Source of the DNA: Candidatus Gastranaerophilales bacterium
Lineage (GTDB): Bacteria; Cyanobacteriota; Vampirovibrionia; Gastranaerophilales; Gastranaerophilaceae
Reading direction: 5' to 3'
DNA: 64,000 nucleotides
Assembly: GCA_944323625.1 (NCBI GenBank)
Contig: CALUTD010000002.1
Coordinates: 102,168-166,167, forward strand
Positions 3,689-25,120 of this stretch are shown piece by piece. The notes below the pieces were generated by a model. The model made no database searches, was not told the origin of the DNA, and saw only the letters and a program-made list of their open reading frames with translations. Position numbers and translations under genes: made by a program. Numbering within the stretch: the stretch's first letter is position 1; each line of letters begins with the position of its first letter.

Positions 3689-3697
3689 GGGGGGGGG
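3689..3697 (+). repeat. Homopolymer G9 tract, 10 nt after the helicase stop codon
   Basis: Direct count: g at positions 3689-3697. Confidence 0.95.
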
Positions 3698-3797: not shown

Positions 3798-4530
3798 ATG
3801 AATAAATTAATTGACCACTACGGGGGGGGGTAGAAACAGAGTAGTTTTTAGAATACTCTTTTCTTCACAAAAATTTTCATTTACACTTGCAGAAGTACTA
3901 ATAACACTTGTTATTATCGGAGTTATTGCAGCTATAACGGTTTCTTCTTTAATTGCTAATACCCAAAAACAAGAATATATTTCAAGATTAAAAAAGGCCG
4001 ATTCCGTTTTAAGACAGGCATTATATAAAGTCGCAATTGACTCGGGATATCCTGTTGGTGATTTTTCTTTTGTTTCAGATTATGAGTTTTTTGATGTTCT
4101 TAAAAAACATCTGAATACTATAAAAGTTTGTACAAAATCAGGTCAAGACTGTTTTCCTTCCGGTACAAAAACTTTAAAAGGGCAATTTCATTCTGATTAT
4201 AATAATATTGTATCATATTACACTCCGGCTTTTGTAACAGCTGACGGAATTGCGTTTAATTTTCAATGTTACGGAAGTGAAAAGTATTCATTTCAAAATA
4301 AAGGAATTTCAGAAGAAGATATTGAAAATGCACTTTGCAGAATTATGATAGATGTAAACGGGCAAAGTTCTCCCAATACATTTGGACGTGATTCTTTTTT
4401 TCTAATTATAGTAAACGGTAAAGGAGTTGTCGCAGCAGGGAGCGGAAATGACTCTGCAGATTGCAGCAAAAACGATAAAGGTTTTACATGTGCCGCACGA
4501 GTTTTGAAAACCGGTAAAATGGATTACTGA
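3798..4530 (+). CDS. Type IV pilin/pseudopilin-like protein (prepilin-type N-terminal FTLAEVLITL helix), out of frame as sequenced (phase-variable)
   Basis: RBS AAGGAGA at 3784-3790 and ATG 3798 give MNKLIDHYGGG and then stop at TAG 3831. The body (track ORF 3811..4530, ...RNRVVFRILFSSQKFSFTLAEVLITLVIIGVIAAI...) lies in the +1 frame. Eight or eleven G would restore the frame. Confidence 0.8.
3822..3830 (+). repeat. Homopolymer G9 tract inside the pilin leader codons (slipped-strand switch candidate)
   Basis: Direct count: g at positions 3822-3830, flanked by tac...tagaaacag. Confidence 0.95.
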
Positions 4531-9647: not shown

Positions 9648-10433
9648 TTATTTGCATTCCCTTTTTCCGCCCCAGGATAAATCACTGCACCTTAGGTAGT
9701 CCATATTTTCATTATAAATTACCCACGCAGTGCAGCCCATTCCGTTAACATAACTGTCATACGCACTACCAAATTTCTTAGTGTTTGTACAATACTTATA
9801 AAAAGAAATATGGTCTCCGTTTGTTCCGATAGGGTAAATTTCATCTTTTGTAAAATAAAAATCAAATAAATCACGACCCATAACATTGGGATTTTTATTT
9901 CCGTTTATGTCAACATTTATGTGACCGCATACATTCTTTACTTTTCCATATGTAAAACTACAATTCTTATTCCATGCTCTAAATTGAAAAACAAGCCCGT
10001 TAATTGTTTTAAATGCAGAATGAGTTTGTGTATTTAAATTCCTATAACAATTTTTTATTGCTTCTGCAGACGTCATATCCGTACAATCAGTTTGAACCTT
10101 CATATAAGGTATAAATTTTTTAGCAAGAATTTTATGTGATATATCATCATACATTCCCTGCATTCCCCATTCATCAGGACTTCCCTCATCTTTTAATATC
10201 ATTCCGTATGCTTGAGAAAGCATTGAATAGGCCTGTTTTACTCTTTGTACCGTTGCTTTTTCCTGTATATCCGTAATTAAAATCATAATGGTTATTGCGG
10301 CAATGACCCCTATTACAACCAAAGTAATTAAAACTTCCGAAAGAGTGAATGAGAAATATTTACAAAGGAAGGAGTTTTTAAAAAGTAACCTGTTTCTACC
10401 CCCCCCCCCGTGGCGGTTTAATGATTTATTCAT
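9648..10433 (-). CDS. Type IV pilin/pseudopilin-like protein, paralog of 3798..4530, in frame
   Basis: MNKSLNRHGGGGRNRLLFKNSFLCKYFSFTLSEVLITLVVIGVIAAI... with a Cys-containing globular C-terminal domain. AGGAG (plus-strand ctcct 10442-10446) sits 8 nt from the ATG. Confidence 0.85.
   Translation of the reverse strand: MNKSLNRHGGGGRNRLLFKNSFLCKYFSFTLSEVLITLVVIGVIAAITIMILITDIQEKATVQRVKQAYSMLSQAYGMILKDEGSPDEWGMQGMYDDISHKILAKKFIPYMKVQTDCTDMTSAEAIKNCYRNLNTQTHSAFKTINGLVFQFRAWNKNCSFTYGKVKNVCGHINVDINGNKNPNVMGRDLFDFYFTKDEIYPIGTNGDHISFYKYCTNTKKFGSAYDSYVNGMGCTAWVIYNENMDYLRCSDLSWGGKRECK
10399..10409 (-). repeat. Homopolymer G11 tract (C11 on the plus strand) encoding the GGGG of the pilin leader
   Basis: Direct count: c at positions 10399-10409. 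Confidence 0.95.
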
Positions 10434-10556: not shown

Positions 10557-13307
10557 ATGTCTATGATTATTTCTTCAATTAATAATATTTCACCTTCTAA
10601 AATTTTAAATAATAAGAATACTATAACTTCAAATAAAGTAAGTGTTCTTGAAAATGATGTCTTCGAAAGAAAAAACATCTCTTTCGGATATAGTTATGAT
10701 GATTATTTTAACTATGAAAATGAAGATGAATTAACTTCAACTATACGTAAAGAAATATATGAAATAAAATTGCAACATTATTTGAATGTTTTTACGGATA
10801 AAAACATTCAAAATAAACTTATGTCCTACAAAAAGATGAAAATATCAGATTTTAATAATATGTATAATGTTGAAGCTCTGATAGATAAAAAGTTCTTAAA
10901 TGAGTTTTTAGATGGAAATGGAATTAAAACATTAGCTCAGTTACAAAATTTTATTAAATTTGGATTTTCAAACAAAGAAACAAAAAATGTTTTTAATTAC
11001 CAAAATATAGAAGCACTTGAAATATATGGATTGTTAAATTCAAAAGATAGCTTAAATAAATATCCACAAATGCTTTTATACTTATATAAAACAGAGAAAG
11101 CAAAACCCGAGCCGAATTTCGATAAATTAAACACTTATTCCAATTTCTTAAAAGAGATGGGGTTAAGTAATTTTGATAATTTTAATATCAAATTTTCTCA
11201 TCTTAAACCAAAATTTAATGACTTTGAAAGTATCACCGATCAAATAGATGCAATTGACTATATGATGGATACGTATGATGACAAAATTGATTATTTAAAT
11301 AAACTTATCAATTCAAATTCTAGAATTGTAAAAAAAGATGCAAGAACTCTATATAAAAATCAAAATGATATAGTTGAGTGTATTTACGGACAAAAAGACA
11401 GTAAATCTTTCTATAATTATTCATCCTTAATGGATTTAGTTTTCTCAAGTGACAAATTCTCGCGCTTAGCATTAAAAAATGTTGAACAGTATTTTAACAA
11501 TTTTGAAAATCCTGAAGATAAATTAGAATTCTACAAACTTCTAAAAAGTTGCAATGTTACCATATCTGAATTTAATAATTTATGCAGCAAAACAATATTA
11601 TCAGATTGTAATCCAGTTGATAATATTATAAACAAAGAAATAATTCCTGAAAATCTATCTAAATTTTTTGATAGCGACAAGCAAAAAGCCAATGAGTTTT
11701 ATTTGAAATTCGGCGGCATTGTAAATGCATTATGCGAACAAGATAACTTGCAAGGTTTTTCTAGCCTATTGAAAATTATTGATAAATACGAGTTAAAAAC
11801 TCAAGATGATATATTAAAATTCTATAATAAATGTTCAAATACGAAACAAAAAAGTATAACTTCCAAAGAATTAACAGATTTTATTGAATTATTTAATTAT
11901 GCACCTGATGAAAATGTTATTCAAAGAGCAAAAACAAAAAATGTTTCGGCTGTTGAGTATTTAAAATTACGAAAAGAAGAATTTAAAAACTTTGAAGGAG
12001 ATATAAGTCAGTTTTTATCAGAAGATAATACAGGATATTTTGCCGGTAAAAAACTTATAGAAATTTTTAATAAATATAAAGAAGCAATCAGACAGAATCC
12101 TAAAAACATATCAACCACTCTAAAAAATATAGTTGATTTTAATATATCCGGCTCAGAAGAATATAATAACAATCTTGCCCAAATCAACAAATTTTTAAGA
12201 CATTTTCCTGACAGAAAATCAGTTTTAAGGTTCATATCTGATAATAATATCAGTTTTGAAAATACAAAAGAAGCATCAGAATACCGGGAAAACTGCCTTG
12301 AAATTTTGGACATTCTAAATGACAAAAATAATATTAAACAATCACAAAAGAGAATTAAACAAATTTCCGAATCAAGGTTTTTGCCTTCATCTGAATCAGG
12401 TTTAACTACATTCTTAAAAGGTTTTAACACTCTTGAAGAAAAAAGAGAAATATTAAACATAATTGCAGACAGAAAAGTCCCTTCTTTAAGACAGTGGCAT
12501 TCTTTTTTAATTAAATATAAAGCTCAAAAAGGCAGTTATGACAAAGATGTAGTAAAATATTTTAACTCTATTGATGAAAATATTAATTTTAAAAGTATTA
12601 CACAACATTTAGATACTTTGCAAAAAGAAATAGATAAATATGGTATTGATGCTAAAATTACCGCACAAAATATGTCTGCGGCCAAAATTGATTTATATAA
12701 TCCTCAGGATTTTTATAATATGCTAAATAATCTTATTTCTAACGGAAATGAAAAGGCTAATTTTATTTCGAGCCTTCCATATACATTTAAAGAAACCGGC
12801 GATAACTATAATGCTTTTCAAATAGCTAATGAAATAGTGGATCAAAATATATTAACCCATAATAATAAATATGAAAACATACCAAGATTACTGGGTATTA
12901 ATAATGTAATCAATTCACAAAATCAAATAAAAACACTTTATTCCTTAATTGAAATTATTAAATCATGTATTCCTCAAAAATTTATAGATTTCGTTAATTC
13001 TAATGAATGGCTGGATTTCTCTTCAGAGGGTAAAATTCCTAACATATCTTTGCACGCTAAATTAAGAGCCATAGACAGATTCGCCCTGGCTGATGCAAAA
13101 ACAATTGATGAACTTTATTCTGATAAAACAAAAAATTTATTACAAGATTTATTTAGAACAATCTATATACAAACCCCAAAAAACGTTAAACGAGCTGATA
13201 AAGAAGATTCAAATCGCCTTGTAGTATATACAAAAAATAATAAAGACAAAATTAAAACAGTTTTTACCAATAAAGGCTCAATGATTACAGTTGTGAAAAG
13301 AAACTAA
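10557..13307 (+). CDS. Large (916 aa) N/K/I-rich hypothetical protein with no signal peptide
   Basis: Long uninterrupted ORF with genome-typical composition. The C-terminal ~85 aa (SLHAKLRAIDRF...LVVYTKNNKDKIKTVFTNKGSMITVV) weakly resemble DUF4258-type small toxin modules. Confidence 0.6.
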   Translation: MSMIISSINNISPSKILNNKNTITSNKVSVLENDVFERKNISFGYSYDDYFNYENEDELTSTIRKEIYEIKLQHYLNVFTDKNIQNKLMSYKKMKISDFNNMYNVEALIDKKFLNEFLDGNGIKTLAQLQNFIKFGFSNKETKNVFNYQNIEALEIYGLLNSKDSLNKYPQMLLYLYKTEKAKPEPNFDKLNTYSNFLKEMGLSNFDNFNIKFSHLKPKFNDFESITDQIDAIDYMMDTYDDKIDYLNKLINSNSRIVKKDARTLYKNQNDIVECIYGQKDSKSFYNYSSLMDLVFSSDKFSRLALKNVEQYFNNFENPEDKLEFYKLLKSCNVTISEFNNLCSKTILSDCNPVDNIINKEIIPENLSKFFDSDKQKANEFYLKFGGIVNALCEQDNLQGFSSLLKIIDKYELKTQDDILKFYNKCSNTKQKSITSKELTDFIELFNYAPDENVIQRAKTKNVSAVEYLKLRKEEFKNFEGDISQFLSEDNTGYFAGKKLIEIFNKYKEAIRQNPKNISTTLKNIVDFNISGSEEYNNNLAQINKFLRHFPDRKSVLRFISDNNISFENTKEASEYRENCLEILDILNDKNNIKQSQKRIKQISESRFLPSSESGLTTFLKGFNTLEEKREILNIIADRKVPSLRQWHSFLIKYKAQKGSYDKDVVKYFNSIDENINFKSITQHLDTLQKEIDKYGIDAKITAQNMSAAKIDLYNPQDFYNMLNNLISNGNEKANFISSLPYTFKETGDNYNAFQIANEIVDQNILTHNNKYENIPRLLGINNVINSQNQIKTLYSLIEIIKSCIPQKFIDFVNSNEWLDFSSEGKIPNISLHAKLRAIDRFALADAKTIDELYSDKTKNLLQDLFRTIYIQTPKNVKRADKEDSNRLVVYTKNNKDKIKTVFTNKGSMITVVKRN

Positions 13308-22981: not shown

Positions 22982-24349
22982 ATGTCTTTTTTTAATGAAC
23001 ATTCAATAATTGAAACAATAAATATGATAAAGGTTCACAATCTTGATATAAGAACCGTAACTTTGGCCTTGAGTTTACGCGATTGCTGTTGCAATGACGT
23101 AAAAAAGACAGGAGATAAAATATATAACAAAATTACAAAATACGCAAAGCACCTTTGTGAATATGCACAAGAAATTGAAGAAGAATATTCTATTCCTATT
23201 ATAAATAAACGAATTGCGGTTACCCCAATTTCATTAATAGGAGAATCCTGCAAAGAATATGATTATGTTTATCTTGCAAAAGTGCTTGATGAAGCGGCTA
23301 AAGAAGTGAATGTTAATTTTATCGGCGGCTTTTCCGCACTTGTTGAAAAAGGATGTACAAAAGGGGATACAGCGCTTATTGAAAGTATTCCCGAAGCTTT
23401 AAAAACCACTCAAAGAGTATGTTCATCGGTTAACCTTGCCTCTACAAAAGCAGGAATTAATATGGATGCCGTAAAAAAAATGGGCGGAATAATAAAGCAG
23501 GCAGCAGAATATACAAAAGAAGAGGACGGAATAGGTGCGGCAAAACTTGTATGTTTTTGCAATGTTCCGGGGGATAATCCTTTTATGGCAGGGGCTTTTC
23601 ATGGTTATGGCGAGCCTGAATGCGCACTAAATATAGGTGTATCAGGCCCGGGGGTTGTTAGGGCCGCAGTTGAAAATCTCCCAAAAAATGCAGACTTTGG
23701 AGAACTTGCTAACAAAATTAAACAAATAGCTTTTAAAATAACATCAACAGGTGAACTTGTCGGCCGAAGGATGGCAAAGAAAATGAATATTCCTTTTGGG
23801 ATTATAGATTTATCTCTTGCGCCAACACCTGCCATAGGCGACTCTGTTGCAGGAATTTTTCAAGCCATGGGATTAGAACATGCCGGCGCTCACGGAACTA
23901 CTGCTGCCCTTGCAATGCTTAATGATGCGGTTAAAAAAGGCGGTATAATGGCAAGTTCCTATGTCGGCGGGTTATCAGGCGCTTTTATTCCGGTTTCTGA
24001 AGATGCAGGCATGATTGAAGCAGCGAAACAAGGTGTTTTAACATTTGATAAATTAGAAGCAATGACTTGTGTATGTTCTGTAGGACTTGATATGATCGCA
24101 ATTCCAGGAAATACACAAGAATCTACTATATCAGGTATTATTGCTGATGAAATGGCAATAGGAATGATTAACAAAAAAACAACTGCTGTAAGAATAATAC
24201 CGGTGCCGGGGAAAACCGTGGGAGATTATGCCGTATATGGCGGACTTTTGGGTGAAGCACCTATTATGCCCGTAAACAAGCTATCATCTGAAATATTTGT
24301 CAACCGTGGCGGCAGAATTCCGGCACCGATACATAGTTTAAATAACTGA
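22982..24349 (+). CDS. UPF0210/DUF711 (PFL-like) family protein
   Basis: 455 aa with N-terminal [12 protein letters not shown]. The size and the ACT partner fit the family. Confidence 0.7.
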
Positions 24350-24371
24350 TTGTATCAAAAATTCTTAAAAG

Positions 24372-24791
24372 TTATTCAGATTCCGAATCTGATATTTTAT
24401 CCTTTACAAATTCAACTATTTCACCCGTCATAAGAGTTGAGCTAACAACACCTTTTTTAATTCCATCAATTAAGGATTCGCCTAATTCTTCAGTATTTTC
24501 TTTTAATGTTTCAACAAATTCTGCACCGCCGGCTTTTGCTTTGTCAAGAATTGAACCTTCTTCTTCAACTGCTGCTTTGCCGCCTTGAATAAAAGCATTG
24601 CCTTCTGTAGCAATTCCATTAACTAAGAATTCGCCTAATTCTTCAGTATTTTCTTTTAATGTTTCAACAAATTCTGCACCGCCGGCTTTTGCTTTGTCAA
24701 AAATTGAACCATCTTCTTCAATTGCAGCTTTGCCGCCCTGAATAAAAGCACTGTGCTCTGCAGCATTTTCAAAAATTTTTTTAATTTCCAT
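24372..24791 (-). CDS. Small acidic protein made of two tandem 51-aa repeats, function unknown
   Basis: AFIQGGKAA(I/V)EE(D/E)GSI(F/L)DKAKAGGAEFVETLKENTEELGE occurs twice. No signal peptide or transmembrane segment. Confidence 0.6.
   Translation of the reverse strand: MEIKKIFENAAEHSAFIQGGKAAIEEDGSIFDKAKAGGAEFVETLKENTEELGEFLVNGIATEGNAFIQGGKAAVEEEGSILDKAKAGGAEFVETLKENTEELGESLIDGIKKGVVSSTLMTGEIVEFVKDKISDSESE
24476..24751 (-). repeat. Intragenic tandem duplication (period 153 nt, two ~123-nt near-identical copies)
   Basis: 24476-24598 versus 24629-24751. The first 72 nt are identical, followed by about 6 mismatches. Confidence 0.9.
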
Positions 24792-24831
24792 AAATTTATC
24801 CTTTCCTTTTTTCTACAAGTTAAATATCGGT

Positions 24832-24990
24832 CGGGGGGGGGGAACTTTAGGGTTTAATTCGCATAATTTACAAAAATTAACAATAGTAAAATATTTTTTA
24901 ACAAAAAAATATTTACGTGGTTTTAAAATAGCATATTAATAAACAGGAACAAAAAAACATGAAAAAATTATCAAAAAATCCCCCCCCCCG
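24832..24990. promoter_or_regulatory. Segment bounded by a perfect 12-nt inverted repeat, cG10a (24832-24843) and tC10g (24979-24990); candidate phase-variation element
   Basis: Direct count of both tracts. The 135-bp AT-rich interior lies upstream of the gene starting at 24791 and contains TTGTAA-N18-TAAAGT on the minus strand, abutting the tract. Confidence 0.5.
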
Positions 24991-25085
24991 TAGTAATTAA
25001 GTTGTTAAGTTTATGTAAAACATGTGCACCATCTTAAAAGGTGAGAGAAAAATAATTTAAAATTTTAGCTTATTAATCTAACTTC

Positions 25086-25120
25086 AAAAAAGCCCTAAAC
25101 TCTTTTAGTTTAGGGCTTTT
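25086..25120 (-). terminator. Rho-independent terminator after sucD (also usable in the opposite direction)
   Basis: 10-bp stem agccctaaac/gtttagggct (25091-25100 and 25108-25117) with a 7-nt loop and T-runs on both strands. Confidence 0.8.

Follow-up and report, generated by a model that had tools for sequence, protein, structure and literature searches.

Paired ten-base G/C runs upstream of an orphan gene in Candidatus Gastranaerophilales, a probable slippage-type control region

The DNA analyzed here is a stretch of 64,000 nucleotides from a Candidatus Gastranaerophilales genome, referred to below as the window; its GC content is about 31%. The minus strand carries an orphan gene (24372-24791) which encodes a protein of 139 amino acids and is preceded by a good ribosome-binding site (RBS); the open reading frame was intact in all strains. 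The gap of 336 bp given for this locus in the original prediction was correct, measured from the stop codon of sucD (25128) to the ATG of the orphan gene (24791). The intergenic region is bounded distally by the intrinsic terminator of sucD (25088-25120), which has a stem of 14 bp.

Two homopolymeric runs of ten bases lie in this region. The proximal run (24833-24842) is G10 on the plus strand and reads C10 in the coding direction of the orphan gene, is flanked by c (24832) and a (24843), and ends 41 nt upstream of the orphan-gene ATG. The distal run (24980-24989) is C10 on the plus strand, is flanked by t (24979) and g (24990), and begins 18 nt past an AGGA and ATG of the plus strand and 98 nt before the sucD terminator. 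With one flanking base on either side, cG10a (24832-24843) and tC10g (24979-24990) are exact reverse complements of 12 nt each, and the predicted perfect inverted repeat around 135 bp was thus confirmed on reading the sequence. The interior (24843-24979) is AT-rich and measures 137 bp from run to run; counted from one 12-nt arm to the other, it has 135 bp.

Long G/C runs are not expected in DNA of this composition. Matches to G/C 8-mers in the 64-kb window numbered 14, compared to 0.13 ± 0.37 in dinucleotide shuffles. Only five runs of nine or more bases are present, and there are none of seven or eight bases. Four of the five long runs form two pairs with members less than 150 bp apart (P about 6e-4 for random placement); the non-random pairing of runs in the window is real. 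The inverted repeat extends beyond the homopolymers by one base pair per side, with a chance of about 0.08 for both as estimated from base composition, and its inward extension matches at four of six positions, in AT-rich DNA. It consists essentially of two opposite homopolymers, and the base pair gained at either end has no statistical significance. Both G10 and C10 are uninterrupted and exceed the length of about 8 bp from which slippage can be expected, and both are positioned as at such loci, where the run is found in the 5' coding sequence or in the promoter or 5'-UTR; the promoter in question here is putative.

The interior had no match elsewhere in the compared DNA and was identical in the more divergent strain L100. 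Comparison of the 336-bp intergenic region with the rest of the window and with about 200 loci gave no match except low-complexity A/C runs. A repeated or mobile (MITE-like) element was rejected, as the intergenic region is unique in this material. A replication origin or DNA-unwinding element was rejected as well: DnaA-box-like motifs numbered 4 versus 12.5 expected, with none in the region, and the GC skew in the window simply tracks gene orientation, which counts against an origin. Viral and metagenome contigs were additionally scanned for the pattern G9+...C9+. The viral contigs gave 0 matches. The metagenome contigs gave at least 120 stretches, almost all of them low-complexity read-end junk or eukaryote-like repeat families, and this locus was not among the matches listed. 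Three small families of segments of about 125-150 bp (L108/L115/L161, L118/L149/L159/L166, and L121/L131/L155) were noted among the matches listed. They have extended terminal inverted repeats with G/C-run ends and are located on unrelated, partly eukaryote-like metagenome contigs; these segments, which have no relation to the window, may be hairpin or MITE-like repeats.

Only weak promoter consensus matches were found in the interior, on both strands. At a scan threshold of 9 of 12 consensus positions, the region contained four promoter-like sites versus 2.3 ± 1.8 expected, i.e. no enrichment over shuffles, and the consensus scans of the region returned no good minus-strand promoter for the orphan gene. 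The motif TTGTAA-N18-TAAAGT (24873-24844, minus strand), which had been proposed for this role, is present and adjoins the proximal run, but it matches at 8 of 12 positions and falls below the scan threshold. If TAAAGT is nevertheless the true -10 element, the proximal run would follow directly after it. An alternative -10 candidate, GATATT (24823-24828, minus strand), is located 4 nt downstream of the proximal run and is kept in L100; were this the functional element, the run would lie within the promoter spacer.

On the plus strand, the sequence TTTACG-N16-TATTAA (24912-24939) was recognized by sequence reading and is absent from the consensus-scan list. It is followed on its 3' side by AGGA (24945-24948) and might serve as a promoter facing a mini-ORF and pointing away from the orphan gene. 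The mini-ORF (MKKLSKNPPPRSN and stop codon, 24959-25000, plus strand) starts with the ATG at 24959, passes through the distal run, and has 13 codons. On sequence reading its length depends on that run, with 25 codons for C9 or C12 and 11 codons for C11. It is either what remains of a phase-variable gene start that was lost, or fortuitous. The interior also contains a perfect AT palindrome of 11 bp (AAATATTTTTT aaca AAAAAATATTT, 24889-24914), which forms a hairpin in the predicted fold and is situated about 10 bp off the centre of the bracketed segment. This palindrome could be an operator between divergent promoters, or it could have arisen by chance in AT-rich DNA.

One explanation of the two runs, a G:C clamp in a long 5' leader, had been offered in the original prediction. 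For this, transcription would have to start from a promoter located past the sucD terminator and before the distal run. Within the resulting leader of about 250 nt, G10 and C10 would pair and close an AU-rich loop of 137 nt, with consequences for mRNA stability, processing or translation. The pairing itself was predicted, as a 12-bp helix of both runs in the minimum-free-energy and the centroid fold, and equal run lengths in most strains are in line with a helix. The fold as a whole, however, was no better than that of dinucleotide shuffles (z = -1.3). Furthermore, the consensus scan of the minus strand gave no promoter-like site upstream of the distal run, and the helix stops about 30 nt before the RBS, which is not sequestered. 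An Rfam search of the region gave no match near the gathering score of any family. Structured cis-regulatory RNAs are recognized by membership in a known family or by a fold above chance with covariation; the region had neither, and the strains, L100 included, are too similar for covariation. An RNA clamp is considered improbable.

For a comparison of strains, look-ups of exact proteins led to contigs from at least nine other samples; additional strains were sought via the neighbouring DUF711 protein, which returned the same contigs only. The locus could be compared in ten independent consensus assemblies (the window, L001, L003, L004, L005, L007, L008, L009, L011, and L100), which stem from several hosts and samples and include a variant strain with 96% identity. 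The runs recurred with the same flanks in the products of several assemblers and from several samples. A sequencing or assembly artefact, such as two-colour poly-G or a chimeric junction, was rejected on account of this recurrence in independent assemblies.

Tabulation of the tract lengths, which had been suggested as a check, was done at the level of assemblies. Most contigs, among them that of the more divergent strain L100, have lengths of 10/10, and two assemblies deviate. The proximal run, read on the coding strand, is C10 in the window, L003, L004, L005, L007, and L100; in L001, which has a low coverage of about 4.7x, it reads C8 followed by GTCACC. For the distal run, in minus-strand reading, most assemblies have G10, and L009 has G11. 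Of 13 related contigs, five are broken or chimeric at the runs: L008 and L011 stop inside the proximal run, L004 (at its start) and L010 (3610-3640), both from one shared sample, are broken at the distal run, and L002 is chimeric at a run (at about 1628) with a foreign flank of 41% GC. These breaks and length differences fit homopolymer trouble or length heterogeneity, and they provide no evidence for inversion. A metagenome contig was also observed that ends in Illumina adapter sequence (AGATCGGA), and L016 likewise ends at a homopolymer.

The same assemblies bear on the proposal that the segment is an invertible promoter (inverton). According to this proposal, a recombinase or template switching would flip 24843-24979 between the G10 and C10 arms and turn TTTACG-N16-TATTAA, which now faces the terminator, toward the orphan gene. 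The assemblies seen would represent the OFF state, and the flipped junctions would read TTACTAC-Gn-AACTTTAGGG and ATCAAAAAAT-Cn-GACCGATATT. Inverted repeats flanking a short segment beside a gene are indeed found here, with homopolymers as arms: the perfect repeat encloses a 137-bp AT-rich segment directly upstream of the gene, the best promoter-like motif of the interior faces away from that gene, and assemblies often break at the arms. The orientation of the interior relative to its flanks, however, was identical in all ten assemblies, so that the occurrence of both orientations in populations or strains, as expected of an inverton, was not observed among these consensus sequences. The search for an invertase was negative for the genes of the 64-kb window, since no serine or tyrosine recombinase was among their Pfam results, and no other pair of G and C runs was found in the window. 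In addition, the arms contain no sequence beyond the homopolymer that a recombinase might recognize, and contig breaks occur also at single runs, where they are expected from homopolymer sequencing errors. Standard pipelines for inverton detection drop inverted repeats that are homopolymeric or whose GC content exceeds 85% (PMC10994844, methods). Given such filters, a class of homopolymer-armed invertons would have been missed by surveys. For the present locus, inversion is judged very improbable, and the proposal found no support, also in view of the direct repeats at the pilin-like gene described below.

Further long runs of the window are associated with two prepilin-like genes, designated pil1 and pil2. 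The gene pil1 (3798-4530, plus strand, ATG 3798) contains a G9 run (3822-3830) that starts 21 nt after the ATG and is G9 also in L015 and L016. G9 puts the gene out of frame, so that the translated product ends with MNKLIDHYGGG. In pil2 (9648-10433, minus strand, ATG 10433) a G11 run (10399-10409) is located 21 nt after the ATG; it is in frame and reads through into the pilin. In two other samples (L015/L016, 6329-6338) the pil2 run is G10 and out of frame, which makes the run clearly polymorphic in length. Both proteins have an N-terminal motif of the FTLAEVLI type and belong to the PF07963/PF20318 (N_methyl/DUF6613) family. The frame change at both genes was demonstrated by translation, and the two intragenic runs are, judged from their sequence, textbook slipped-strand phase variation. 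A second G9 of the pil1 locus (3689-3697, plus strand) lies 109 nt upstream of the pil1 ATG. The helicase gene upstream ends 10 nt before this run, which is kept as G9 in L015; it might act as a spacing element upstream of the promoter.

Comparable runs were found in other members of the lineage. Prepilin-like genes of Gastranaerophilales carry G9-G12 or C9 runs about 3-85 nt past the start codon, within the leader. In another metagenome-assembled genome (MAG; L222), one gene has G12 (10015-10026) at position +14 relative to its start, and the leader of the gene that follows contains G11 (11132-11142). Leaders with C9 are present in L225-227 (L225, 2285-2293), and L226 has G10 (639-648) in the leader of a further pilin-like gene. 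At the protein level, a long leader before the cleavage motif contained GGG(G) in 10 of 120 homologues and PPP in three of 120. In contrast, a single run of eight or more bases was present in about 370 kb of Gastranaerophilales DNA surrounding the housekeeping DUF711 locus; it is situated between genes resembling motA and motB. Taken from these sequences, slippage phase variation of pilin-like proteins looks like a lineage-wide trait.

Several observations were made alongside. In L221 (1951-2664), from another sample, the body of the pil2 protein is present with 98% identity in a different neighbourhood, with an ordinary short leader (MKKNFTLSEVLI) and without a G run; the run-containing 5' cassette therefore appears to be exchangeable between near-identical pilin-like genes. 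In another Gastranaerophilales species, a MotA-like and a MotB/OmpA-like gene have a G10 run (L042, 2560-2569) between them, past the stop codon of the first and before the ATG of the second; this run may act as a slippage switch for a pair of motility or envelope genes. Gene callers start the affected pilin-like genes at downstream TTG or ATG codons, by which the switch is hidden.

The arrangement at pil1 resembles that at the orphan gene. The promoter, RBS and start codon of pil1 are bracketed by the two G9 runs, which are direct repeats with 124 nt between them. Read on the plus strand, the region upstream of the orphan gene has the same order of elements: G10, TTTACG-N16-TATTAA, AGGA, the ATG at 24959, 18 nt, and C10. 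The mini-ORF is comparable in its layout to the starts of pil1 and pil2 and to the PPP-type leaders of homologues. Both loci thus combine a run about 110 nt upstream of an ATG with a run just after it, in direct orientation at pil1 and in inverted orientation here. As direct repeats can neither pair nor invert, any common purpose of the layout would be neither pairing nor inversion; the pil1 pair counts against the RNA clamp and the inverton alike. The two-run layout was not seen at the pilin-like genes of other species.

Sequence similarity between the two loci was low. The 5' cassettes of pil1 and pil2 resemble each other with z of about 7-9, compared to z of at most 3.8 for the region upstream of the orphan gene versus either of them. 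The highest value was obtained for the 5' flank of the distal run in minus-strand reading, which is similar to a pil1 leader that has lost its ATG (z = 3.8 versus shuffles). Against real genomic controls, the best similarity to a pilin cassette had a p of about 0.015-0.027 before correction and was not significant. It is conceivable, with a very low probability, that the two-run bracket is a functional unit of its own, made up of a homopolymer upstream of the promoter and another, at a distance of about 125-140 bp, shortly after the start, which is direct at pil1 and inverted here, and which at the orphan gene would constitute a flippable homopolymer-armed inverton.

On balance, the region upstream of the orphan gene is taken to be a slippage-type control region of the contingency kind that is found in this lineage, an interpretation to which we give somewhat better than even weight. 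Since the sister runs act as slippage switches in pilin-like genes, the two runs of the intergenic region are probably slippage tracts too. This reading, one of those offered originally, gained support from the context, namely the pilin-gene switches, the length difference at pil2, and the runs of other species, as well as from the small length differences that the two runs themselves show among assemblies. The proximal run, 41 nt upstream of the orphan ATG, would be located in the putative core promoter or touch it. Gain or loss of a base in this run during replication would alter the promoter geometry, and the altered geometry would lead to expression of the orphan gene that differs stochastically from cell to cell. 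Such stochastic expression, which had been predicted, is deduced from the position of the run and from the behaviour of similar tracts. The distal run, which follows an RBS and ATG of the opposite strand as in the pilin-like genes, would switch the frame of the mini-ORF of 11-25 codons. Alternatively, it could be the stump of a phase-variable gene start that was lost at a rearrangement junction. Slippage would require no DNA inversion and no RNA pairing between the runs, and their inverted symmetry is best regarded as incidental. On the other side, hypermutability of the runs is deduced from two deviating assemblies, of which L001 has a coverage of only about 4.7x, and the mostly exact lengths of 10/10, L100 included, could instead reflect a fixed length.

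The orphan gene and its surroundings bear on a further explanation. A Pfam search with the 139-aa protein returned no family. Searches that covered 5.8 billion clusters as well as 1.84 billion representative proteins returned only a variant with 96% identity and a fragment as relatives; a third, weak relative, a Calx-beta repeat protein, was discarded as spurious. AlphaFold2 gave a low-confidence, all-helical model with a mean pLDDT of 42. The protein contains a recent internal tandem duplication of about 51 aa, whose repeat units are identical at 135 of 153 nt. Compared to strain L100, the gene has five nonsynonymous differences and one synonymous difference. These counts give no indication of purifying selection. 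The gene is not pilin-like.

The best relatives of the neighbouring DUF711 protein, with 73-93% identity, come from gut MAGs of animals and humans that are named Candidatus Gastranaerophilales or Melainabacteria. In comparisons with related species, nucleotide synteny reaches as far as the end of the DUF711 gene, at about 24345-24361, and no further, and neither sucD nor the orphan gene was found beside DUF711 in any of 80 related loci. The orphan gene and the intergenic region are present only in near-identical strains. On these grounds, the orphan gene and its upstream region are placed at a lineage-specific junction. Downstream of DUF711, the relatives with 73-93% identity in this protein carry unrelated genes, such as those for a TPR protein and several large uncharacterized ORFs in L020, and sucCD was not found near DUF711 in them.

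At such a junction the runs and the interior could be functionless relics of phase-variable gene starts, one or two in number and similar in type to the pilin leaders, that were stranded by rearrangement, still slipping and with nothing dependent on them. The exact end of synteny at DUF711 and the 0 of 80 loci with sucD or the orphan gene beside it speak for this explanation. The orphan gene has no homologues beyond the 96% variant and is not pilin-like, and its ratio of five nonsynonymous to one synonymous differences may indicate that the runs serve no function. The RBS and ATG before the distal run lead into no gene body and at most 25 codons, and the flank of this run resembles the pil1 leader with the ATG deleted, as described above. 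That similarity, however, is weak against the real genomic controls. Two unstable 10-bp runs have moreover both been retained, mostly at exactly ten bases, in every strain seen, L100 included, and the ORF of 139 codons is intact with a good RBS in all of these strains. The relic explanation is held to be rather unlikely, and a slippage-type control region remains the preferred reading.

If this reading is true, uncultured gut Gastranaerophilales, which are non-photosynthetic relatives of cyanobacteria known from metagenomes only, use poly-G/C slippage switches. Their main targets would be the numerous pilin-like surface proteins, with at least one orphan gene in addition. Contingency loci, which are known mostly from pathogens, would thereby be placed in a commensal lineage. 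The mechanism of homopolymer slippage is known; its occurrence in Gastranaerophilales is new as far as the literature searched is concerned. Control of pili by slippage of a G-tract is documented in Bifidobacterium breve (PMC9187656), and phase variation by homopolymers is documented in Neisseria and Mycobacterium tuberculosis (PMC6232127, PMC10334774). The locus itself is modest, with a known mechanism, a putative effect and an orphan gene. Potentially surprising are the non-random pairing of runs around promoters and, unlikely as it is, a homopolymer-armed inverton of a type that is filtered out of surveys. In practice, such runs break metagenome assemblies or render them chimeric, and gene callers mis-start the affected genes.

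Among the known systems, invertible promoters are represented by fimS of E. coli, hin of Salmonella and the capsule promoters of Bacteroides, and have been collected in PhaseFinder-type surveys. The locus resembles them in that short inverted repeats flank a promoter-like segment within the range of 100-400 bp directly upstream of a gene, and in the predicted outcome, a stochastic ON/OFF expression. It differs from them in its pure homopolymer arms, which lack a specific recognition sequence, in the single orientation in all assemblies, in the absence of a recombinase nearby, and in the direct repeat of the sister layout at pil1.

Tracts in promoter regions are known from the C-stretch of Bordetella pertussis fim, from the poly-G/C between -35 and -10 of porA and opc in Neisseria meningitidis, from the TAAA repeats upstream of nadA, and from the poly-G of Treponema pallidum tpr. 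In common with these, the proximal run is located within or beside the putative core promoter, and an extra run is present tens of bp upstream of a promoter, as seen for the upstream G9 of pil1 and, on the plus strand, for the proximal run. Unlike in these systems, where one run lies inside the control region, two runs bracket it here, and the promoter elements are putative.

Poly-G/C contingency loci with slipped-strand mispairing are represented by the phase-variable genes of Neisseria, Haemophilus and Campylobacter. The runs described here differ from them in being intergenic, in forming an inverted pair around a whole putative control region, and in serving an orphan gene that, to judge by its product, does not look like a surface-structure gene. 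The host differs too, as it belongs to the non-photosynthetic Melainabacteria/Gastranaerophilales, for which no report of phase variation was found in the literature searched. In other respects the runs of this lineage agree with such loci: G/C runs of 9-12 bp are located inside the 5' end of surface-structure genes or upstream of them, differences of one base between strains toggle the frame, as between G11 and G10 in pil2, and such runs are rare elsewhere in the genome.
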